Assembly (NCBI RefSeq): GCF_046736035.1
Contig: NZ_CP177130.1
Coordinates: 10,954 to 42,953 of the forward strand
Direction of reading: 5' to 3'
DNA from: Salinicoccus sp. HZC-1
GTDB taxonomy: Bacteria; Bacillota; Bacilli; Staphylococcales; Salinicoccaceae
DNA length: 32,000 bases
Made by a program: the position numbers and the translations under genes. This document shows, in pieces, positions 19,281 to 32,000 of the stretch (positions within the stretch are counted from its first letter, which is position 1; every line of letters starts with the position of its first letter). Under the pieces are notes generated by a model that ran no database searches, was not told where the DNA came from, and worked only from the letters and a program-made list of their open reading frames with translations.

Positions 19281-20015
19281 TTATTTAGAATTGTCACCCA
19301 GAGTATGCAGTCCGCATTCGGTTTTATCGGAACCGGCCCATCTCCCTTCGCGTGAGTCTTCCCCTGATTTCACCCGGGAAGTGCATGGTATGCATCCGAT
19401 ACTCGGATATTGGAAATCATGAAGTTCATTGTACGGCAGTTCATATTTCTCGATATAATCCCAGACATCATCCCATGTCCAATGAATCAGCGGGCATACT
19501 TTGATGGACTTAAACCGTTCATCCTTATTGACGAAATCGGTATTCTGGCGGCTTGGAGACTGTTCTCTCCTCAGACCGGAAATCCATGCTGATGCACCGT
19601 ATAAAACATCTTCGAGCGGTTTTATCTTACGGATGTAGCAACATTGGTTGGGATCGCTTTTCCACAGGGCGGCGCCATGTTTATCTGCCTGTTCTTCAAG
19701 TGTAAGCTCCGGTTTTTTCAATTTAATGCGGAGTCCGGGGTATCTCTCCTTTACTCTGTCGATTAAGTCATAAGTTTCCTGAAAATGAAGATCCGTATCC
19801 AAAAATACGATTTGGGCATCTGTTTTCACTTTGGATATCAAGTCGATGAGTATCATGCTCTCAGCTCCGAAGCTGCAGGAATAAATGATGGAATCTCCAA
19901 AGTTTCCATAAGCCCATTTCAAAATCCGGAGCGCACCATTTGTTTCATCTGCAGGTGTCAGATTTCGAAAAGGATCAGTCGTGAAATTCTCATAGGTCAG
20001 GGCTGTTTCTGTCAT
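19281..20015 (-). CDS. cysH: phosphoadenosine phosphosulfate / adenylylsulfate reductase (Fe-S type)
   Basis: 244 aa, closely collinear with B. subtilis CysH as I recall it. It carries the CC...CxxC cluster cysteines ([14 protein letters not shown]) and the C-terminal ECGLH. Confidence 0.93.
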
Positions 20016-20119
20016 ATCTTCATCATTCCTCCTTTTTTACATTAGAGTTTTTTGTTCATAAATCTGTTGAAAATTTCATTGGTAATATTTTCTCCCCTTA
20101 TAGAAACCGTCTATTTAAC

Positions 20120-20138
20120 TTATAGAGAGACTCTATAA
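20120..20138. promoter_or_regulatory. perfect 8-3-8 palindrome in the cysH leader (candidate operator or RNA hairpin)
   Basis: TTATAGAG-AGA-CTCTATAA lies between the predicted cys promoter and the cysH start. Confidence 0.35.
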
Positions 20139-20175
20139 AATTAGAATTTTTTGAAAATATTAAATTATGTTGACT

Positions 20176-20204
20176 AGCATATCTGATAGATAATTTCATG
20201 TCAA
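20176..20204 (-). promoter_or_regulatory. candidate sigma-A promoter of the cysH operon
   Basis: The minus strand reads TTGACA (20204-20199), a 17-nt spacer, then TATGCT (20181-20176). This lies about 160 nt upstream of the cysH ATG. Confidence 0.5.
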
Positions 20205-20502
20205 TGCTAAATTATAGTTTTTTAGTAGGATTTACATTTTCTTAACATTATCTGCTTTATACCGGCAATTTTTAATGAAAAACCAGTCATTGAATTATTT
20301 ATCAGAGGTCGTCAGCTGAGAAAACACGCTATTTTAATGGCGTGATGAATGAGCGTCTCGGACGACTTGCATTGTATTCTGTTATTGGTTCTTGTTTTCT
20401 TAATCATACGGGTTCAATGCGTCCTTTCTCTATCCGCGGCTTATATTATATAGCGTGTGCCTTATGGTGATATAATGGGCATTGAAGGGGCGGTGAAATA
20501 CT

Positions 20503-21645
20503 GTGTATAAAGGCATTGAATGCAAGATTTATCCTAATCAGGAACAAGAAAATCTGATTCATATGACATTCGGTCATACCCGCTTCATATGGAACGAAAT
20601 GCTGGGGATGTTGAACGCCCGTTATGAAAACAATCCTGATTTAAAACTGTTAAGCTATACCGCATTGTCATCGATGATTCCCCAAATGAAACGCGAGTTT
20701 GAGTGGTTAAAAGATGTGGACAGTGTGGCTATTCAATGTGCGGTGAAACGACTCTCTGAGACGTTCGACCGGTTCTTCAAAGGATTGTGCAAATACCCAA
20801 AGTTCAAATCCGGGAAATTTGTGAGGCAGTCGTATTTGAGCACGATCCGCGGCAATAATATTCGATTCAATCACACTCAGCGGTATATCAAACTGCCTAA
20901 ATTGGGGTGGGTCAAGTGTAAGAATAGTTTTAAACATATCGAAAATGAACGTATTAAATCCGTTACCGTCAAGCGCAAACCAACCGGTCACTTCTATATT
21001 TCAGTATTGGTAACCAGCGAAAACCAAGCGTTACCGAAAACGGAGCAAAGTGTCGGTATTGATTTGGGTGTGTCCGATTTAGCGATTACATCGGACGGAC
21101 AGAAATACGCGTCCCAACGCTTACATTTAAAATATCAAAAACAGATGCGGTATTGGGAAAAACGGATGGCCCGCCGCCGTCTGGCTGCAGAGGTGAAAGG
21201 GATTGCCCTACGCGAGGCGAAAAACTATCAAACAGCGAAACGCCATGTTGCACGATTGCATGAAAAAATCTCAAATACGCGAAAGGACTACATCCATAAA
21301 ATCACAACAACATTGGTGTCTGAATATGACATCCTATCCATCGAGGATCTGAAAACAAGGAACCTGATGAAAAATCATACTCTGGCACGCAGCATTGCGT
21401 CCCAATCCTGGCGCCAATTCAGGGACGTTTTAAAATATAAATGTGATATCTACGCCAAACAATTGATTGTGGTCAATCCGCATAAGACGTCTCAACTGTG
21501 TTCCAGCTGTCAGTTTGACAGCGGTAAAAAAGCATTAAATATCAGACAGTGGACGTGTCCGGCGTGCAGCATCCACCATGACCGGGATATTAATGCGGCT
21601 AAAAATATATTGAATCTTGGCCTGGGACAGGCCTTAGTAAAATAG
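20503..21645 (+). CDS. tnpB: TnpB (OrfB) RNA-guided endonuclease, RuvC-like with a zinc ribbon
   Basis: 380 aa with the N-terminus YKGIECKIYPNQEQENLIHMTFGHTRFIWN. The RuvC triad candidates are GIDLG, SIEDL and DRDINAAKNI. The zinc ribbon is CSSC...CPAC. GTG start. Confidence 0.92.
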   Translation: MYKGIECKIYPNQEQENLIHMTFGHTRFIWNEMLGMLNARYENNPDLKLLSYTALSSMIPQMKREFEWLKDVDSVAIQCAVKRLSETFDRFFKGLCKYPKFKSGKFVRQSYLSTIRGNNIRFNHTQRYIKLPKLGWVKCKNSFKHIENERIKSVTVKRKPTGHFYISVLVTSENQALPKTEQSVGIDLGVSDLAITSDGQKYASQRLHLKYQKQMRYWEKRMARRRLAAEVKGIALREAKNYQTAKRHVARLHEKISNTRKDYIHKITTTLVSEYDILSIEDLKTRNLMKNHTLARSIASQSWRQFRDVLKYKCDIYAKQLIVVNPHKTSQLCSSCQFDSGKKALNIRQWTCPACSIHHDRDINAAKNILNLGLGQALVK

Positions 21646-27700: not shown

Positions 27701-28336
27701 TTATTTCGCATCGAATACTTTGTCCACCCATTCCTCATCGACATCATTTTCAGTAATGCCATTGTCGCTGAATACAATTTCACCGTACGCAGTAAATTTG
27801 TCATTGGTGTATTGATATACAAAAGGAATATGGGACTTTTCGTATAATTTATACATCAGCGCACGGACACCTCTGCCGGCAGTCGTAAAACTGATTTTCA
27901 GGTCGTCCTCATTCACATTTGTATCCATGGCGAAGCCTTTCATGCCCCAATGAACTTTAGTCCATTCATACGCGTCCGGCACTTCATATTTAATAAGATT
28001 TTCGTAGTATTCCTGGCCAAGATCTATTCTTTCTTCAGCGGTAAGAATCTGTTCCTGTTCTTGAGCAGTAGCTTCACTTAAAATTTCATCAATATCAACA
28101 AAAGCGTTTTCCTTCAAATCTTTAATGAGTTTCTTTTGCTCATCTTCGTCCAAAGTATTATAGTAAGAAGCAATTGAAGCATCCTGATAAGGTGCGGCGT
28201 GAATTTCTAACCCCTCGGGTATAGGTTCGATCACATTGAAATCAATCTCTTTATCTTCATTAATGGCAAAATCTATCATCTTTTCGAGGTCGTCCAGTTC
28301 ATGAAATTTAAGTATACTATATGCAAGACTTGGCAT
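27701..28336 (-). CDS. hypothetical highly acidic cytoplasmic protein (family not recognised)
   Basis: A 211-aa ORF with a good terminator, divergent from rlmH. By hand count it has about 48 D/E against about 19 K/R. No TM or signal peptide is apparent. The W-x3-WG-x-KG motif (EWTKVHWGMKGF) is noted but not assignable by eye. Confidence 0.6.
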   Translation of the reverse strand: MPSLAYSILKFHELDDLEKMIDFAINEDKEIDFNVIEPIPEGLEIHAAPYQDASIASYYNTLDEDEQKKLIKDLKENAFVDIDEILSEATAQEQEQILTAEERIDLGQEYYENLIKYEVPDAYEWTKVHWGMKGFAMDTNVNEDDLKISFTTAGRGVRALMYKLYEKSHIPFVYQYTNDKFTAYGEIVFSDNGITENDVDEEWVDKVFDAK

Positions 28337-28434: not shown

Positions 28435-28914
28435 ATGAAAATTACTCTAATAACAGTAGGAAAGCTAAAAGAGAAGCATTGGAAACAAGCTGTGGAAGAA
28501 TATAAGAAGCGCATCAGCGGGTATGCAAAGCTCGAGCTGGTTGAAATACCGGATGAAAAAGAACCAAATAATGCGAGCAAAAAAGATATAGACATTATAA
28601 AAGAAAAAGAAGCACAAAAGATACTTGGGAAAATCAAAGATACGCAGTATGTCGTCACTTTGGAAATCAAAGGCAAAGCGTATTCGAGTGAAAGCTTGGC
28701 TGAAGAATATCAAAAATGGATGAACACAGGAAAAAGCGATGTCGTATTCATCATTGGCGGCAGCAACGGTATCGGGGAGAGCGTAAAGAAAAGATCCAAC
28801 CAGGAAATCAGCTTCGGTTCCCTCACCTACCCTCACCAGATGATGAAAGTTATGCTGCTTGAGCAGATATTCAGGGTGAATAAGATTATAAAGAATGAAG
28901 CATATCATCGTTGA
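28435..28914 (+). CDS. rlmH: 23S rRNA (pseudouridine1915-N3)-methyltransferase RlmH (OrfX)
   Basis: Collinear with S. aureus OrfX as I recall it (MKIT..VGKLKEK.WKQA..EY.KR; IGGSNG; PHQMM.V.L.EQ; the C-terminal EAYH.). It is 159 aa from ATG 28435, 8 nt after AAAGGA. The ORF-track start at 28426 adds 3 residues. Confidence 0.93.
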   Translation: MKITLITVGKLKEKHWKQAVEEYKKRISGYAKLELVEIPDEKEPNNASKKDIDIIKEKEAQKILGKIKDTQYVVTLEIKGKAYSSESLAEEYQKWMNTGKSDVVFIIGGSNGIGESVKKRSNQEISFGSLTYPHQMMKVMLLEQIFRVNKIIKNEAYHR

Positions 28915-28920
28915 TGCGGT
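28897..28920 (+). other. SCC-type integration site sequence (attB/ISS-like) at the rlmH 3' end
   Basis: GAAGCATATCATCGTTGATGCGGT(TTTT) compares with the S. aureus orfX ISS, which I recall as GAAGCATATCATAAATGATGCGGTTTTT. They differ only in the 3 nt preceding the TGA stop. The dyad CATC-GTT-GATG is retained. Confidence 0.7.
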
Positions 28921-28953
28921 TTTTATAATTTTGTCAGAAAGGATTATTTAATT

Positions 28954-29997
28954 ATGAAAGTGGATGTTTTTTTAGATTCCAATATTTTGTTTAATGATTA
29001 TGAGATAATTAACCACAGATTAAGTGATTTAGTTGAATGGTTTGAGAAAGAAAAAATTGAATATAGCTTGTGTATAGCTGAAATGACCTATCATGAATTG
29101 CTAAAGAAATTTGATAATAATGTTAAAAGTATGATAGCTGAATTTAAAAAAGTAAATAAAGATCATAAAGCCCTTCGTCGTCTACATTATAATATTGAAG
29201 AACTGAAAGAGCATCATGTTTCACTGAAAGAAGAATATGAAAATAGACTAAGAGAAAAATTTGAAATAATAACTCCTAGTGCTGATGCTAATAAAAATGT
29301 TTTTGAAAGATATTATGATGATCTTTCACCTTTCAAAAATGAAAAAAAAGAATTCCAAGATGCTTTGATTTGGGAAACTATTTTCGAACATAGTCAGTGT
29401 TTGGAGAACCAAGATGCTATTTGGTTTGTATCTTCTGACAAAAAAGCATTTTACAATAGTATTGAAAATGGACTGGATAGCGATTTTGAACATGATGGGA
29501 ATATCTTTTTCTATCGAAACCTAAATGATCTTTTAGAAGAGAAAGATGTCTTGATAGATGATTTATTGTTTGAAAATATTGAAGAGATAACTGAAGATTT
29601 CCAAAACGATATGAATAATAAAGTTAGAGATTTTTATATTATAGAGGAAAACATTTTAGATTTTTTAGAAGACTATATACTTAATAATAACTTTATTTCA
29701 GAATATGCTGATGAAGGCTGGGGGACCGATCTTTATGTTTATAATATAGAGCTTTCAGAACTACATTATGCAGATGGTTATAGAAGTACGTCTCATATAT
29801 ACTTGCCGGCCACTATGAGTGTAGAATTTGAATTTAATATTGAAACACGTAATCCGGTTTATGAAAAAGGAGATACTGATTTTGAACAAAATATAATTAT
29901 TGGAGAGGAGAGTCGTAATGCAGATATTGACTGTATTCTAGTTTACGACTTGAAGAACAGACATGTAGTTGATGTTGAACAAATAGAATTTCAATAG
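28954..29997 (+). CDS. PIN-like (DUF4935-type) predicted nuclease with an unassigned C-terminal domain
   Basis: 347 aa. PIN-like acidic positions are seen at D8 (VFLDSNIL), E43/E48 (AEMTYHEL), D136 (EFQDALIWE) and D162 (WFVSSDKKAF). A charged helical insert of about 80 aa lies between the E and the third D. Residues about 200-347 have no motif I recognise. Sampled GC is very low (about 28%). Confidence 0.6.
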   Translation: MKVDVFLDSNILFNDYEIINHRLSDLVEWFEKEKIEYSLCIAEMTYHELLKKFDNNVKSMIAEFKKVNKDHKALRRLHYNIEELKEHHVSLKEEYENRLREKFEIITPSADANKNVFERYYDDLSPFKNEKKEFQDALIWETIFEHSQCLENQDAIWFVSSDKKAFYNSIENGLDSDFEHDGNIFFYRNLNDLLEEKDVLIDDLLFENIEEITEDFQNDMNNKVRDFYIIEENILDFLEDYILNNNFISEYADEGWGTDLYVYNIELSELHYADGYRSTSHIYLPATMSVEFEFNIETRNPVYEKGDTDFEQNIIIGEESRNADIDCILVYDLKNRHVVDVEQIEFQ

Positions 29998-30120
29998 GAA
30001 CAGAAAGATTACATTATTAATTTTGTTAAAACTATATATGATTTGTAATGGTAATCAATTAAATCACTTATTGTACTTTGGTATATTTATAGCATATAAG
30101 AAAAATCGGAGAGTGAGACT

Positions 30121-31605
30121 ATGTCTAAACTAACATTACCACAATTAGAAGCCCATTTATGGGAGTCAGCAAATATACTAAGAGGTTCGATTGATTCCTC
30201 TGATTATAAAAACTATATATTTGGATTATTATTTTTGAAGCGTTTGAGTGACGTATTTATAGAGACAGCTAAGAAGGTCGAGCGAAAAGAAGGTGACGAT
30301 TATGCATGGTATGATCGTGATGAACACCAGTTCTTTGTACCTGAAAGAGCCCGATGGACAGAAATCCAAATACAAACTCATGACATCGGTAATACAATCA
30401 ATAAAGCTTTTGAGGCTCTAGAGGAAGAAAACCCTTCTCTAGTGGGTGTACTTGCCAATATTGACTTTAATGACAAAGAAAAACTGCCCGATAAATTATT
30501 GCTGCAACTCATTCAACATTTCTCAAAGATTGATCTCAGTAATGATAGTTTATCAGAACCGGATATGTTAGGCCGTGCATATGAGTATTTAATTAAACAG
30601 TTCGCAGATGATGCTGGTAAAAAAGGTGGGGAATTCTACACCCCTTCCAAAGTAGTTGAATTGATTGTTAACTTAATTAAACCAGAAGAAGGCATGCGAG
30701 TATGTGACCCTACGGTTGGTTCAGGCGGTATGCTCATTCAGTCTGTAGACTATATCAAATCACAAGGTGGTAATCCGCGTAATTTATCACTGCATGGACA
30801 GGAGAGAAACCTGAGTACATGGTCCATATGTAAGATGAATTTACTTCTCCATGGTTTGAGTGATCATCGCATTGAGCGTGGTGACACCATACGTGAACCA
30901 AAGCTATTAGGTGATGATAAAGAACTATTATTATATGACAGAGTTATCGCCAATCCACCTTTCTCGCTTAAAAACTGGGGGAGAGAAGAAGCAGAGAGCG
31001 ATGAATATGGTCGTTTCAGGTTTGGTATTCCTCCTAAAAATGCAGGTGACTTTGCATTCGTTCAACATATGATAGCTACACTTAATCATGACGGTAAAGC
31101 TGGTGTGGTTATGCCTCATGGAGTACTATTCCGTGGTGGTGCTGAAGGTAAGATCAGAGAAGGTCTACTAAAAGAAGATGTAATAGAAGCAATTATTGGT
31201 CTACCCTCTTCTTTATTCTATGGTACTGGAATTCCAGCGAGCATCTTAATTCTGAACCGAAATAAAGAAGAAAAGCAAAAAGGAAAAGTTTTCATATTAG
31301 ATGGTTCAAAAGATTACCAAGAAGGTAAAAACCAAAATATTCTTCGTGATAAAGATATAAAAAAAGTAATAAGTGCATATGATAAATGGGAAGGTAAAGA
31401 AAAATATTGTCGAGTAGTCAATATAGAAGAAACACAAGAGAATGATTACAACTTAAATATTGCCCGTTATATTGATACCACTGAAGAAGAAGAAGAGATT
31501 GATGTACAGACCGCACTAAATGATTTGAAGAAATTAGAGCAGGATAGAAATGAAATAGAGGAAAAGATGTTTGGGTATTTAAAGGAGCTTGGATATGATG
31601 AGTAA
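30121..31605 (+). CDS. hsdM: type I restriction-modification system, DNA methyltransferase subunit M
   Basis: 494 aa with an HsdM N-terminal domain ([32 protein letters not shown]). The AdoMet motif I is [10 protein letters not shown] and the catalytic motif IV is NPPF. Confidence 0.93.
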
Positions 31606-32000
31606 TCATTCTAGTTGGACAACAAAATCTTTTTCAGAATGTGTAGATAAAATTATTGATCATCGTGGAAAGACCCCTAAAAAGTTAGGTTTAGAATGGG
31701 GGAATGGTAATATACTGGCTCTGTCAGCTAACAATGTAAAAAAAGGGAAAATTGACACCTCAATAGAAGCATATTATGGATCTGATGAACTTTATGACAA
31801 ATGGATGACTAACGGAAAAGTCAATAAAGGCGATGTCATTATGACTATGGAAGCACCTCTGGGCAATGTCACTCAAATCCCTGACACTAAAAAATATATA
31901 TTAAGTCAAAGAGTTGCGGCCTTTAAAACAATAGAAGATATAGACGATGATTATTTTAAGTATTATCTCTCTTCTAGTAAATTTCAAAATTTGCTTGATA
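31595..32000 (+). CDS. hsdS: type I restriction-modification specificity subunit S, 3'-truncated by the window edge
   Basis: The frame is open from ATGATG (31595/31598), overlapping the hsdM stop, to the end of the window. The translation [30 protein letters not shown]...[12 protein letters not shown]...[11 protein letters not shown] is a typical HsdS target-recognition domain. It is absent from the ORF track because it has no stop in the window. Confidence 0.88.

Follow-up and report, generated by a model that had tools for sequence, protein, structure and literature searches.

The 3′ end of rlmH, the orfX homologue, is the target of staphylococcal cassette chromosome (SCC) elements, almost all work on which concerns their carriage of methicillin resistance in staphylococci; use of this hotspot outside Staphylococcus is already known from Macrococcus, Mammaliicoccus and Enterococcus. 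A stretch of 32,000 nucleotides from Salinicoccus sp. HZC-1 (NCBI RefSeq assembly GCF_046736035.1, contig NZ_CP177130.1, positions 10,954 to 42,953 of the forward strand; hereafter the window, meaning the whole of this stretch) contains an rlmH gene that ends in a sequence resembling the SCC attachment (att) site and is followed by genes for a PIN-family protein and a type I restriction-modification system. The question raised by this locus is whether the site is empty, with ordinary genes beside it, or occupied, with a mobile cassette behind it. We consider it probable that the SCC-type att site at the 3′ end of rlmH is occupied and that the DNA behind it is a recently imported cassette carrying the PIN gene and type I restriction-modification. 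The initial annotation of the window, made from the letters alone, had suggested an orfX-integrated island, and this reading is supported by the start of the same cassette in a metagenome contig, by an incongruent rlmH tail, by the differing gene content of relatives, and by att repeats and ccrAB-like genes in related genera.

The target gene occupies 28435-28914 on the forward strand and was identified by NCBIfam model NF000985 (214.5 bits against a cut-off of 172), by the Pfam family SPOUT_MTase (E = 6.7e-56) and by synteny. Its product is 91% identical to RlmH of Salinicoccus halodurans, and outside the Salinicoccus-type group the identities of the nearest matches fall to 50%. Gene order in the window is staphylococcal (dnaB, purA, walR-walK-yycH-yycI-yycJ-orf211-rlmH), with a sulfate-assimilation block and a TnpB gene lying between purA and walR. 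The closing codons of rlmH are AAT GAA GCA TAT CAT CGT TGA, with the stop at 28912-28914, and positions 28897-28924 read GAAGCATATCATCGTTGATGCGGTTTTT. This sequence equals the attB/inverted repeat of Staphylococcus aureus at 25 of 28 positions, the sole change being the replacement of AAA by CGT as the last sense codon. The initial annotation had quoted the S. aureus site as differing only in the three nucleotides before the stop, and this is borne out by the SCCmec direct repeat AGAAGCATATCATAA and inverted repeat CATATCATAAATGATGCGGTTTTTT (PMC13590631) as well as by a staphylococcal contig (L045) in which rlmH terminates in GAAGCATATCATAAATGATGCGGTTTTT. When both strands of the 32 kb were scored with a weight matrix derived from 36 related att sites, the site at rlmH reached 21.0 bits and the runner-up, anywhere on either strand, 12.6 bits.

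The complete SCC-type attachment site covers about 50 bp (28875-28924, forward strand), as judged from the sequence itself, the match to the S. aureus direct and inverted repeats, the weight matrix and the published architecture. According to the latter, an SCC att site consists of two half-sites flanking a GA dinucleotide, the presumed point of strand exchange, 6 bp upstream of a TATCATAA core (10.64898/2026.03.31.715619). In the window, the left half-site lies at approximately 28875-28896, inside rlmH, its extent being inferred from related full sites; GA follows at 28897-28898, a variant core TATCATCG at 28903-28910, and a right arm TTGATGCGGTTTTT extends to 28924, such that the right half-site is ordered GA-AGCA-TATCATCG-TTGATGCGGTTTTT. 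The variant core equals the canonical one at 6 of 8 positions and retains the central C, while the arm is that of S. aureus (TGATGCGGTTT type). The same core variant is present at rlmH in eight loci of related species and in a contig bearing a ccr gene (L066). With the crossover placed at GA 28897-28898, a position that we adopted from the literature, the right half-site is GAAGCATATCATCGTTGATGCGGTTTTT in its entirety, and it is the element that contributes this half where a site is occupied. An att sequence abutting rlmH cannot by itself distinguish an empty from an occupied site, the arm fitting both alike; comparative evidence is required.

The most direct comparison is provided by a metagenome. 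When metagenome contigs were searched for the att sequence, 12 carried it, all from one metagenome (Ga0079226), and most of these break at the att site, as expected where a repeat joins many alternative cassettes; several carry restriction-modification genes, both type III and type IIG-like. In one case, L061, the contig continues across the site, and its rlmH belongs to another genus than that of the window. Its 96 nt of rlmH match the metagenome-assembled genome of Ca. Salinicoccus merdavium (L029) at 96 of 96 positions and Jeotgalicoccus meleagridis at 95 of 96, compared with only 72 of 96 (75%) for the window. From GA onwards, L061 is identical to window positions 28897-30459 at 1545 of 1563 nucleotides. 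Just two mismatches fall in the first 1306 nt, comprising the att sequence, the PIN gene, the spacer and the start of hsdM (99.8%), and the other 16 in the final 257 nt, within hsdM. The switch from 75% to 99.8% identity takes place within about 6 nt of the reported crossover GA. The junction is therefore site-specific and the start of the cassette has been transferred between genera recently. A recently shared cassette inserted site-specifically would give this pattern; vertical descent would not, and homologous exchange within rlmH would fit it poorly.

Further observations on these contigs concern the hsdM end of the match and a second rlmH 3′ end. Identity of L061 to the window drops from 99.8% to about 94% inside hsdM (window 30204-30459), which suggests a recombination breakpoint near hsdM codon 28, the PIN segment having perhaps been shared more recently than the remainder of hsdM. 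Another contig from Ga0079226, L056 (14.6 kb, a reverse-oriented copy), begins with the last 64 nt of rlmH and one att arm; at its other end stands a complete rlmH of which the 3′ sequence is the same but the arm is another. Either this 14-kb arrangement with two rlmH 3′ ends is genuine, or the assembly has threaded a path through the repeat.

The history of the rlmH tail differs from that of the gene that bears it. The final 28 nt are identical (28/28) to those of Salinicoccus jeotgali, the gene body of which is 79% identical, and agree at 27 of 28 positions with L017 and L015, with gene bodies at 74-75%. By comparison, the closest relatives by gene body (L001, L004 and L006; 81-86%) share only 16, 13 and 11 of the 28 positions respectively and have non-canonical tails. 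The tail of S. halodurans rlmH, GAAAGTTATCATAAGTGA, is non-canonical and of an ancestral type. By these alignments, the tail of rlmH in the window and the remainder of the gene have conflicting phylogenies.

Base composition changes at the same place. The 25 genes upstream that we treat as core have G+C contents of 0.37-0.51 and G+C contents at third codon positions (GC3) of 0.35-0.53. Beyond the rlmH stop these values are 0.284 and 0.204 for the PIN gene, 0.368 and 0.273 for hsdM, and 0.328 and 0.246 for the 5′ part of hsdS. A mild slope in G+C begins upstream (yycJ, orf211 and rlmH, 0.37-0.39), but the sharp fall in GC3 comes only past the rlmH stop. Insertion at the 3′ end of rlmH places the beginning of the foreign, low-GC3 DNA within the last codons of the gene. 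The initial annotation had described a block of differing composition starting 39 bp after the stop; the next gene does begin at 28954, 39 nt past the stop, and the break in GC3 (0.20-0.27 against 0.35-0.53) is real. Of its hand estimates, about 28% G+C for the PIN gene was accurate, about 40% for hsdM was somewhat high, and 53% for dnaB described a single sampled line, the whole gene having a G+C content of 0.472.

On the evidence of L061 and GC3, the proximal end of the imported cassette spans 28897-32000 on the forward strand and runs past the end of the window. The PIN_12-family gene (28954-29997, forward strand, 347 amino acids; Pfam PF16289, E = 3.9e-19) is followed by a spacer (29998-30120), the last 45 nt or so of which, from about 30077, align as homologous with the Salinicoccus albus (L007) sequence lying directly behind the att arm. 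The type I methyltransferase subunit gene hsdM (30121-31605, forward strand) was recognised by TIGR00497 (277 bits against a cut-off of 243), by the Pfam domains HsdM_N and N6_Mtase, and by PADLOC as MTase_I (E = 3e-164). It overlaps by 8 nt the start of hsdS (31598-32000, forward strand; Pfam Methylase_S, PADLOC Specificity_I, E = 2.8e-38), of which the 5′ part, containing the first target-recognition domain, is present before the window ends. Of the genes proposed by the initial annotation, the PIN-like nuclease is thus borne out by Pfam, and the type I subunits by Pfam and PADLOC and, for hsdM, NCBIfam, as one complete hsdM and the 5′ part of hsdS; related modules are all ordered hsdM-hsdS-hsdR-ygjP, and the window ends before any hsdR position. 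Two further resemblances in this segment were set aside: an att-like match at 30137 lies inside hsdM and lacks the GA context, and a weak, gapped likeness to the rlmH tail just past the PIN stop (about 30003), seen by eye and carrying no score, is not claimed.

Does the region behind rlmH behave as an insertion site in related species? We compared rlmH ± 10 kb from about 30 species of Salinicoccus, Jeotgalicoccus, Lacicoccus, Corticicoccus, Phocicoccus and Aliicoccus. Gene content 3′ of rlmH is almost wholly unshared among them, with no common gene order, and G+C there is usually lower. Up to a point 12 nt behind the rlmH stop, the loci L005 and L008 align at 92-95% identity; beyond that point they have no homology. 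The initial annotation had associated ancestral, vertically inherited content with the same genes occupying this position in all relatives; the alignment gives the opposite. In 23 full loci, additional att sites were sought as GA plus core, and 16 were found in 8 loci, every one of them on the rlmH strand and downstream of the gene; neither the upstream side nor the other strand had any. These are full sites, with a left arm AAAACCGCATC..GATACG-NN-GA in addition to the right arm, and the left arm corresponds to the CATCA..GATAAG pattern of staphylococcal attL (10.64898/2026.03.31.715619).

Cassettes flanked by att sites consequently lie downstream of rlmH in related genera. In Salinicoccus kekensis (L015) an att-bounded cassette of 8.4 kb carries type I restriction-modification and a TIR/SEFIR protein, and in Salinicoccus sesuvii (L031) one of 9.35 kb carries a TIR protein, type I restriction-modification and an insertion sequence. 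In some loci the distal arms copy rlmH ends of the 'empty' kind seen in other species. The right arm of the distal S. kekensis site (L015 18908) and about 65 nt of flank resemble the rlmH end and flank of L023 and L025 (81-84% over 68-85 nt), and by sequence similarity this distal arm is the displaced ancestral rlmH tail that would be expected there. Jeotgalicoccus coquinae and Salinicoccus carnicancri, with rlmH genes that are far more divergent, share a cassette of 1.65 kb at 86-90% identity, and the smallest cassettes among the relatives measure 1.7-3 kb.

The sites themselves vary. At rlmH and at distal sites, two families of right arm occur, a Staphylococcus-like TGATG[C/A]GGTTTT and TAGTGCGTGTT (for example in L016, L018, L020 and L024, as against the window, L008 and L017), with matching left arms AAAACCGCATC.. 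and AACACGCAC..; these may reflect two recombinase specificities. In J. meleagridis (L016 10463-10700), five complete att sites stand in tandem directly after rlmH with no cargo between them, in units of 50 and 54 bp forming a 104-bp repeat present 2.3 times, and arrays are also seen in metagenome contigs L053, L054, L055, L057 and L062. Simple excision does not account for such arrays, since it leaves one site. Beyond the restriction-modification module of S. albus (L007 17312-20031) there are genes for a HipA-like kinase, a HIRAN-domain protein and a DUF5655/NucS-like protein, which look to be of defence type.

The restriction-modification module has travelled widely. HsdM of the window is 90% identical in amino acid sequence to that of S. 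albus, where hsdM adjoins the att arm directly without a PIN gene. Against the S. jeotgali protein, encoded in an hsdM-hsdS-hsdR-ygjP module that is inverted as a whole, identity is 88%. Identities of 85-87% to proteins of Gracilibacillus, Virgibacillus and Oceanobacillus, halophilic Bacillaceae, indicate that the module has been widely transferred. The closest HsdM of all (P0088, 92%) is encoded on L066, which reads from a Jeotgalicoccus-type rlmH 3′ end through an att site GAAGCATATCATCGTTGATGAGGTTTTT to hsdM, hsdS, hsdR, ygjP, two uncharacterised genes, DUF1643, DUF960, RadC, SAUGI and a ccrB-like gene for a large serine recombinase, situated 10.7 kb from rlmH. Contig L070 has this complex in complete form: with the same neighbours, it carries a polA-like gene, DUF5906 and a ccrA-ccrB pair encoding recombinases of 464 and 547 amino acids; downstream of this ccr complex is the other type I restriction-modification family, as found in L005, L016 and L031.

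The cultured relative Corticicoccus populi KCTC 33575 carries a ccrAB pair and a DUF927 gene some 26 kb downstream of its rlmH and on one contig with it; an att-like site follows at about 36 kb. In that distal site (L069 around 1550, reverse strand), GC replaces the central GA (GATACG-TA-GC-AAGT-TATCATAA), and it may be decayed or fixed. Complexes of ccrAB type are hence present behind rlmH in related genera. Among NCBIfam models, CcrA and CcrB fit these recombinases best, with alignments over the full length and scores of 285-314 against 700 and 491-547 against 900 bits, the equivalog cut-offs, and the CcrB-like protein of L070 is 41% identical to CcrB of Staphylococcus haemolyticus. Within Salinicoccus, homologues of DUF1643 and DUF960 are found in L005 at 9-10 kb downstream of rlmH, the edge of the 10-kb region compared, so that a ccr complex probably lies just beyond. 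Taken together, these data indicate that the family has the full SCC toolkit and that the cargo in the window belongs to that family.

The mechanism that we envisage for HZC-1 is that of SCC. A circular cassette with its own att site would recombine with the att site in rlmH through a CcrAB-type large serine recombinase, with the crossover at or beside GA 28897-28898. Everything to the right of the crossover would then be element DNA, namely the last six codons of rlmH and its stop, the arm TTGATGCGGTTTTT, the PIN_12 gene and hsdM-hsdS(-hsdR-ygjP), and the far end, beyond base 32000, would be expected to hold a second att site together with the original tail of rlmH, displaced there by the insertion. 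The cargo would serve in defence against phages and plasmids, as type I restriction-modification plus a predicted PIN nuclease. Judged by comparison of sequences, a near-identical cassette start at the same site in a different host, together with relatives that have other content or ancestral-type ends, argues that the element is mobile. We infer that a Ccr-type enzyme acted in the HZC-1 genome, that the element keeps its distal att site, and that it either has ccr genes of its own or is supplied with Ccr in trans.

Several observations weigh against occupancy by an SCC-type cassette. Staphylococcal empty sites also bear the canonical right arm, and the arm alone is no proof of occupancy. Pattern search, regular expression and weight matrix detected no second att site in 28925-32000, and neither hsdR nor a recombinase gene is present in the visible 3.1 kb past the att site. 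Searches by motif and by BLAST with small resolvases disclosed no large serine recombinase within 10 kb downstream of rlmH in the approximately 30 loci, only two small resolvases, in L017 and L025; nor was a large serine recombinase found in the 12 contigs from the metagenome. The same restriction-modification family stands beside rlmH in S. albus (L007) and S. jeotgali (L008), where there is no distal att site and no ccr gene within 10 kb, and, a weaker point, no Salinicoccus protein is named among the best 120 Ccr-like matches listed. L061 is a short metagenome contig and could be an assembly chimera across the 27-nt repeat; this is unlikely, because other contigs break at the repeat instead of crossing it. 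Finally, the module also occurs in other vehicles, for example beside a tyrosine integrase in L051/L052.

The att sequence might be an empty or relict attB, and the PIN gene and restriction-modification an ordinary variable defence island, exchanged by homologous recombination through rlmH-type flanks following transformation or transduction, with no Ccr integration in the lineage. Such an account would explain why neither a second att site nor a ccr gene is seen in the window; moreover, canonical arms adjoin apparently core-like genes in L002, the restriction-modification module is promiscuous and occurs in non-SCC contexts, and in S. aureus single defence genes such as sadR stand directly after an intact attB, outside SCC (PMC13590631). 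We nevertheless regard it as unlikely, since homologous exchange would leave a longer stretch of shared rlmH than is left by the abrupt switch between L061 and the window, since the rlmH tail is of element type and unlike that of the closest relatives, and since the nearest HsdM belongs to a ccr-bearing element at the same place (L066).

That the island was inserted by a different integrase, such as a tyrosine recombinase at its far end, and abuts rlmH by chance is a proposal to which we give very little credence. It draws on L051/L052 (European Nucleotide Archive ERZ12298792, Logan SRR14812349), where hsdM-hsdS-hsdR-ygjP, with an HsdM 87% identical to that of the window, forms an island with a 438-amino-acid phage-type tyrosine integrase and a PemK-like toxin, and where the end of L052 reads ACCGTACCATAAGTAAATGAGGTTTTTT, resembling an rlmH end plus att arm. 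Only 16 nt of this putative rlmH are visible, however, no att-like repeat was found at the integrase end of that island, and the att architecture of the window and its relatives is of the serine-recombinase, SCC type. Vertical inheritance, with the att-like sequence retained as the coding end of rlmH and as a transcription terminator and the low G+C attributable to gene function, is scarcely tenable. In its favour, hsdM also follows rlmH directly in S. albus, at the 90% identity noted above, and the TATCAT core is coding (Tyr-His). Yet no terminator-like structure was detected at the att site, for which reason conservation of the arm as a terminator was rejected; the tail is incongruent with the rlmH tree, the closest relatives carry other genes at this position, GC3 halves exactly at the rlmH stop, and a near-identical cassette stands behind the rlmH of another genus (L061). 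A scan of viral contigs for the att sequence gave one match, in a coding region of a high-G+C phage, which was taken as chance.

The first gene of the cassette encodes a member of a rare family, with 86 representatives among 1.84 billion. The PIN_12 domain (PF16289) spans residues 5-166 (70 bits against a cut-off of 32); across 28 homologues, E48 and D136 are invariant and D165 nearly so, and the first acidic residue, at about D8, was read by eye from the N-terminal LDTN consensus. An AlphaFold model has a mean predicted local distance difference test score (pLDDT) of 85.5. In Foldseek searches the N-terminal domain consistently matches PIN toxins of the VapC type, with target-normalised template modelling (TM) scores of up to 0.63 and weak E-values, and the C-terminal half is modelled as a helix and a curved beta-sheet with an NTF2-like resemblance. 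The protein has no match in PADLOC or NCBIfam. Besides the protein of the source strain itself (100% identical), the indexed search returned one homologue, 36% identical, on the staphylococcal contigs L044/L045, where it is directly behind the rlmH att site and followed by an hsdM remnant within an att-flanked cassette of 7.1 kb. Other PIN_12 homologues (P0003 and P0006) occur in unrelated variable regions, unlinked to restriction-modification or rlmH, and the idea of a functional partnership between the PIN protein and restriction-modification was dropped on that account. From its sequence, a defence or toxin role for the predicted nuclease is plausible.

Two neighbouring features of the window are recorded here. 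A TnpB gene of the IS605 OrfB type (20503-21645, forward strand), with Cas12f1-like TNB, OrfB_IS605 and HTH_OrfB_IS605 domains, lies in a low-G+C stretch (19500-21000) between the sulfate-assimilation operon and walR and, outside the cassette, is the one gene of the window that is obviously mobile. Between yycJ and rlmH, orf211 (27701-28336, reverse strand, 211 amino acids) has no match in Pfam, NCBIfam or PADLOC and has homologues in some Salinicoccus species only, at 48-77% identity; its position is that of htrC/yyxA in Bacillus.

Elements of this kind are well known, as SCC, pseudo-SCC, tandem defence cassettes and the Enterococcus cassette chromosome (ECC), and the mechanism is not new. 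With SCC, SCCmec and the ccr-less pseudo-SCC of Staphylococcus and Mammaliicoccus, the locus shares the rlmH 3′ target, a half-site that agrees at 25 of 28 positions and includes the arm TGATGCGGTTTTT, the GA 6 bp before the core, and a variable low-G+C cargo including type I restriction-modification; relatives of the window add direct-repeat att sites, ccrA-ccrB pairs and neighbours such as DUF1643, DUF960, SAUGI, RadC and DUF927/DUF5906. It differs in its halophilic Salinicoccus host, in a core that reads TATCATCG and not TATCATAA, in having no mec gene in the part visible in the window, and in that the CcrA- and CcrB-like proteins of its relatives fall far short of the equivalog cut-offs of NCBIfam, with the CcrB-like protein of L070 at about 41% identity to staphylococcal CcrB.

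The tandem defence cassettes of SCC type described by Hossain, Aslan and Hatoum-Aslan in 2024 (PMC11470126) similarly concentrate defence genes behind rlmH in ccr-less, att-flanked tandem cassettes with restriction-modification cargo. That work was experimental and confined to Staphylococcus epidermidis, S. aureus and Staphylococcus argenteus, whereas the present data are comparative and concern other genera, with very small cassettes and cargo-free att arrays. ECC (PMC6222049) also uses the rlmH 3′ end outside Staphylococcus, with divergent ccrAB, att repeats of about 50 bp with a TATCATAA-type core, and highly variable cargo; it belongs to another bacterial family, and its mobilisation by conjugative plasmid has been demonstrated experimentally, whereas the elements considered here are known from sequence comparison. 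At the sadR locus of S. aureus (PMC13590631), a single-gene, nuclease-type defence likewise stands right behind rlmH, inside or outside SCCmec, although SadR is an RNase of the AbiJ/Abi_C type, in contrast to a PIN_12 protein without a PADLOC match.

A family-wide survey at an identity of at least 90% to S. aureus genes reported no SCCmec candidate regions outside Staphylococcus and Mammaliicoccus (PMC12648241). In the literature that we searched, the coverage of which was incomplete such that absence is no proof, neither SCC nor ccr is described from Salinicoccus, Jeotgalicoccus or Corticicoccus. The initial annotation had proposed that an island here would extend the hotspot beyond its classical hosts. 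The hotspot is indeed used in Salinicoccus, but the extension of host range is incremental, given its prior record in Macrococcus, Mammaliicoccus and Enterococcus. Features of the variant that merit attention are the core TATCATCG, the second arm family GTGCGTGTT, the very small cassettes and the abutting att arrays. A more far-reaching idea, which we put forward tentatively and think somewhat doubtful, is that the group of Salinicoccus, Jeotgalicoccus, Corticicoccus and Aliicoccus runs an old and divergent cassette-chromosome system of its own, working more as an integron-style platform for swapping defence genes than as one large island. The rare PIN_12 protein, placed first behind the att site in Salinicoccus and in a staphylococcus alike, would be a new stand-alone defence gene borne by these cassettes. 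Traits of such a system may include CcrAB proteins about 40% identical to those of staphylococci, the core TATCATCG, the arm families GCGGTTTT and GTGCGTGTT, very small cassettes with a single function, and arrays of up to five abutting att sites.

The wider meaning of the locus lies in the activity of the rlmH hotspot. The same att architecture in these environmental and halophilic genera, divergent ccrAB genes in related genera and a near-identical cassette shared between genera show that, far outside the clinical genera, restriction-modification and other defence genes are actively exchanged at rlmH. Divergent ccrAB complexes are found on a Jeotgalicoccus-like contig, on a metagenome contig and in C. 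populi, and a near-identical cassette has moved between genera of environmental and animal-associated cocci. These bacteria may represent a wider pool from which the cargo and recombinases of staphylococcal SCC elements come, and they offer natural variants of att sites and Ccr proteins for the study of site recognition.

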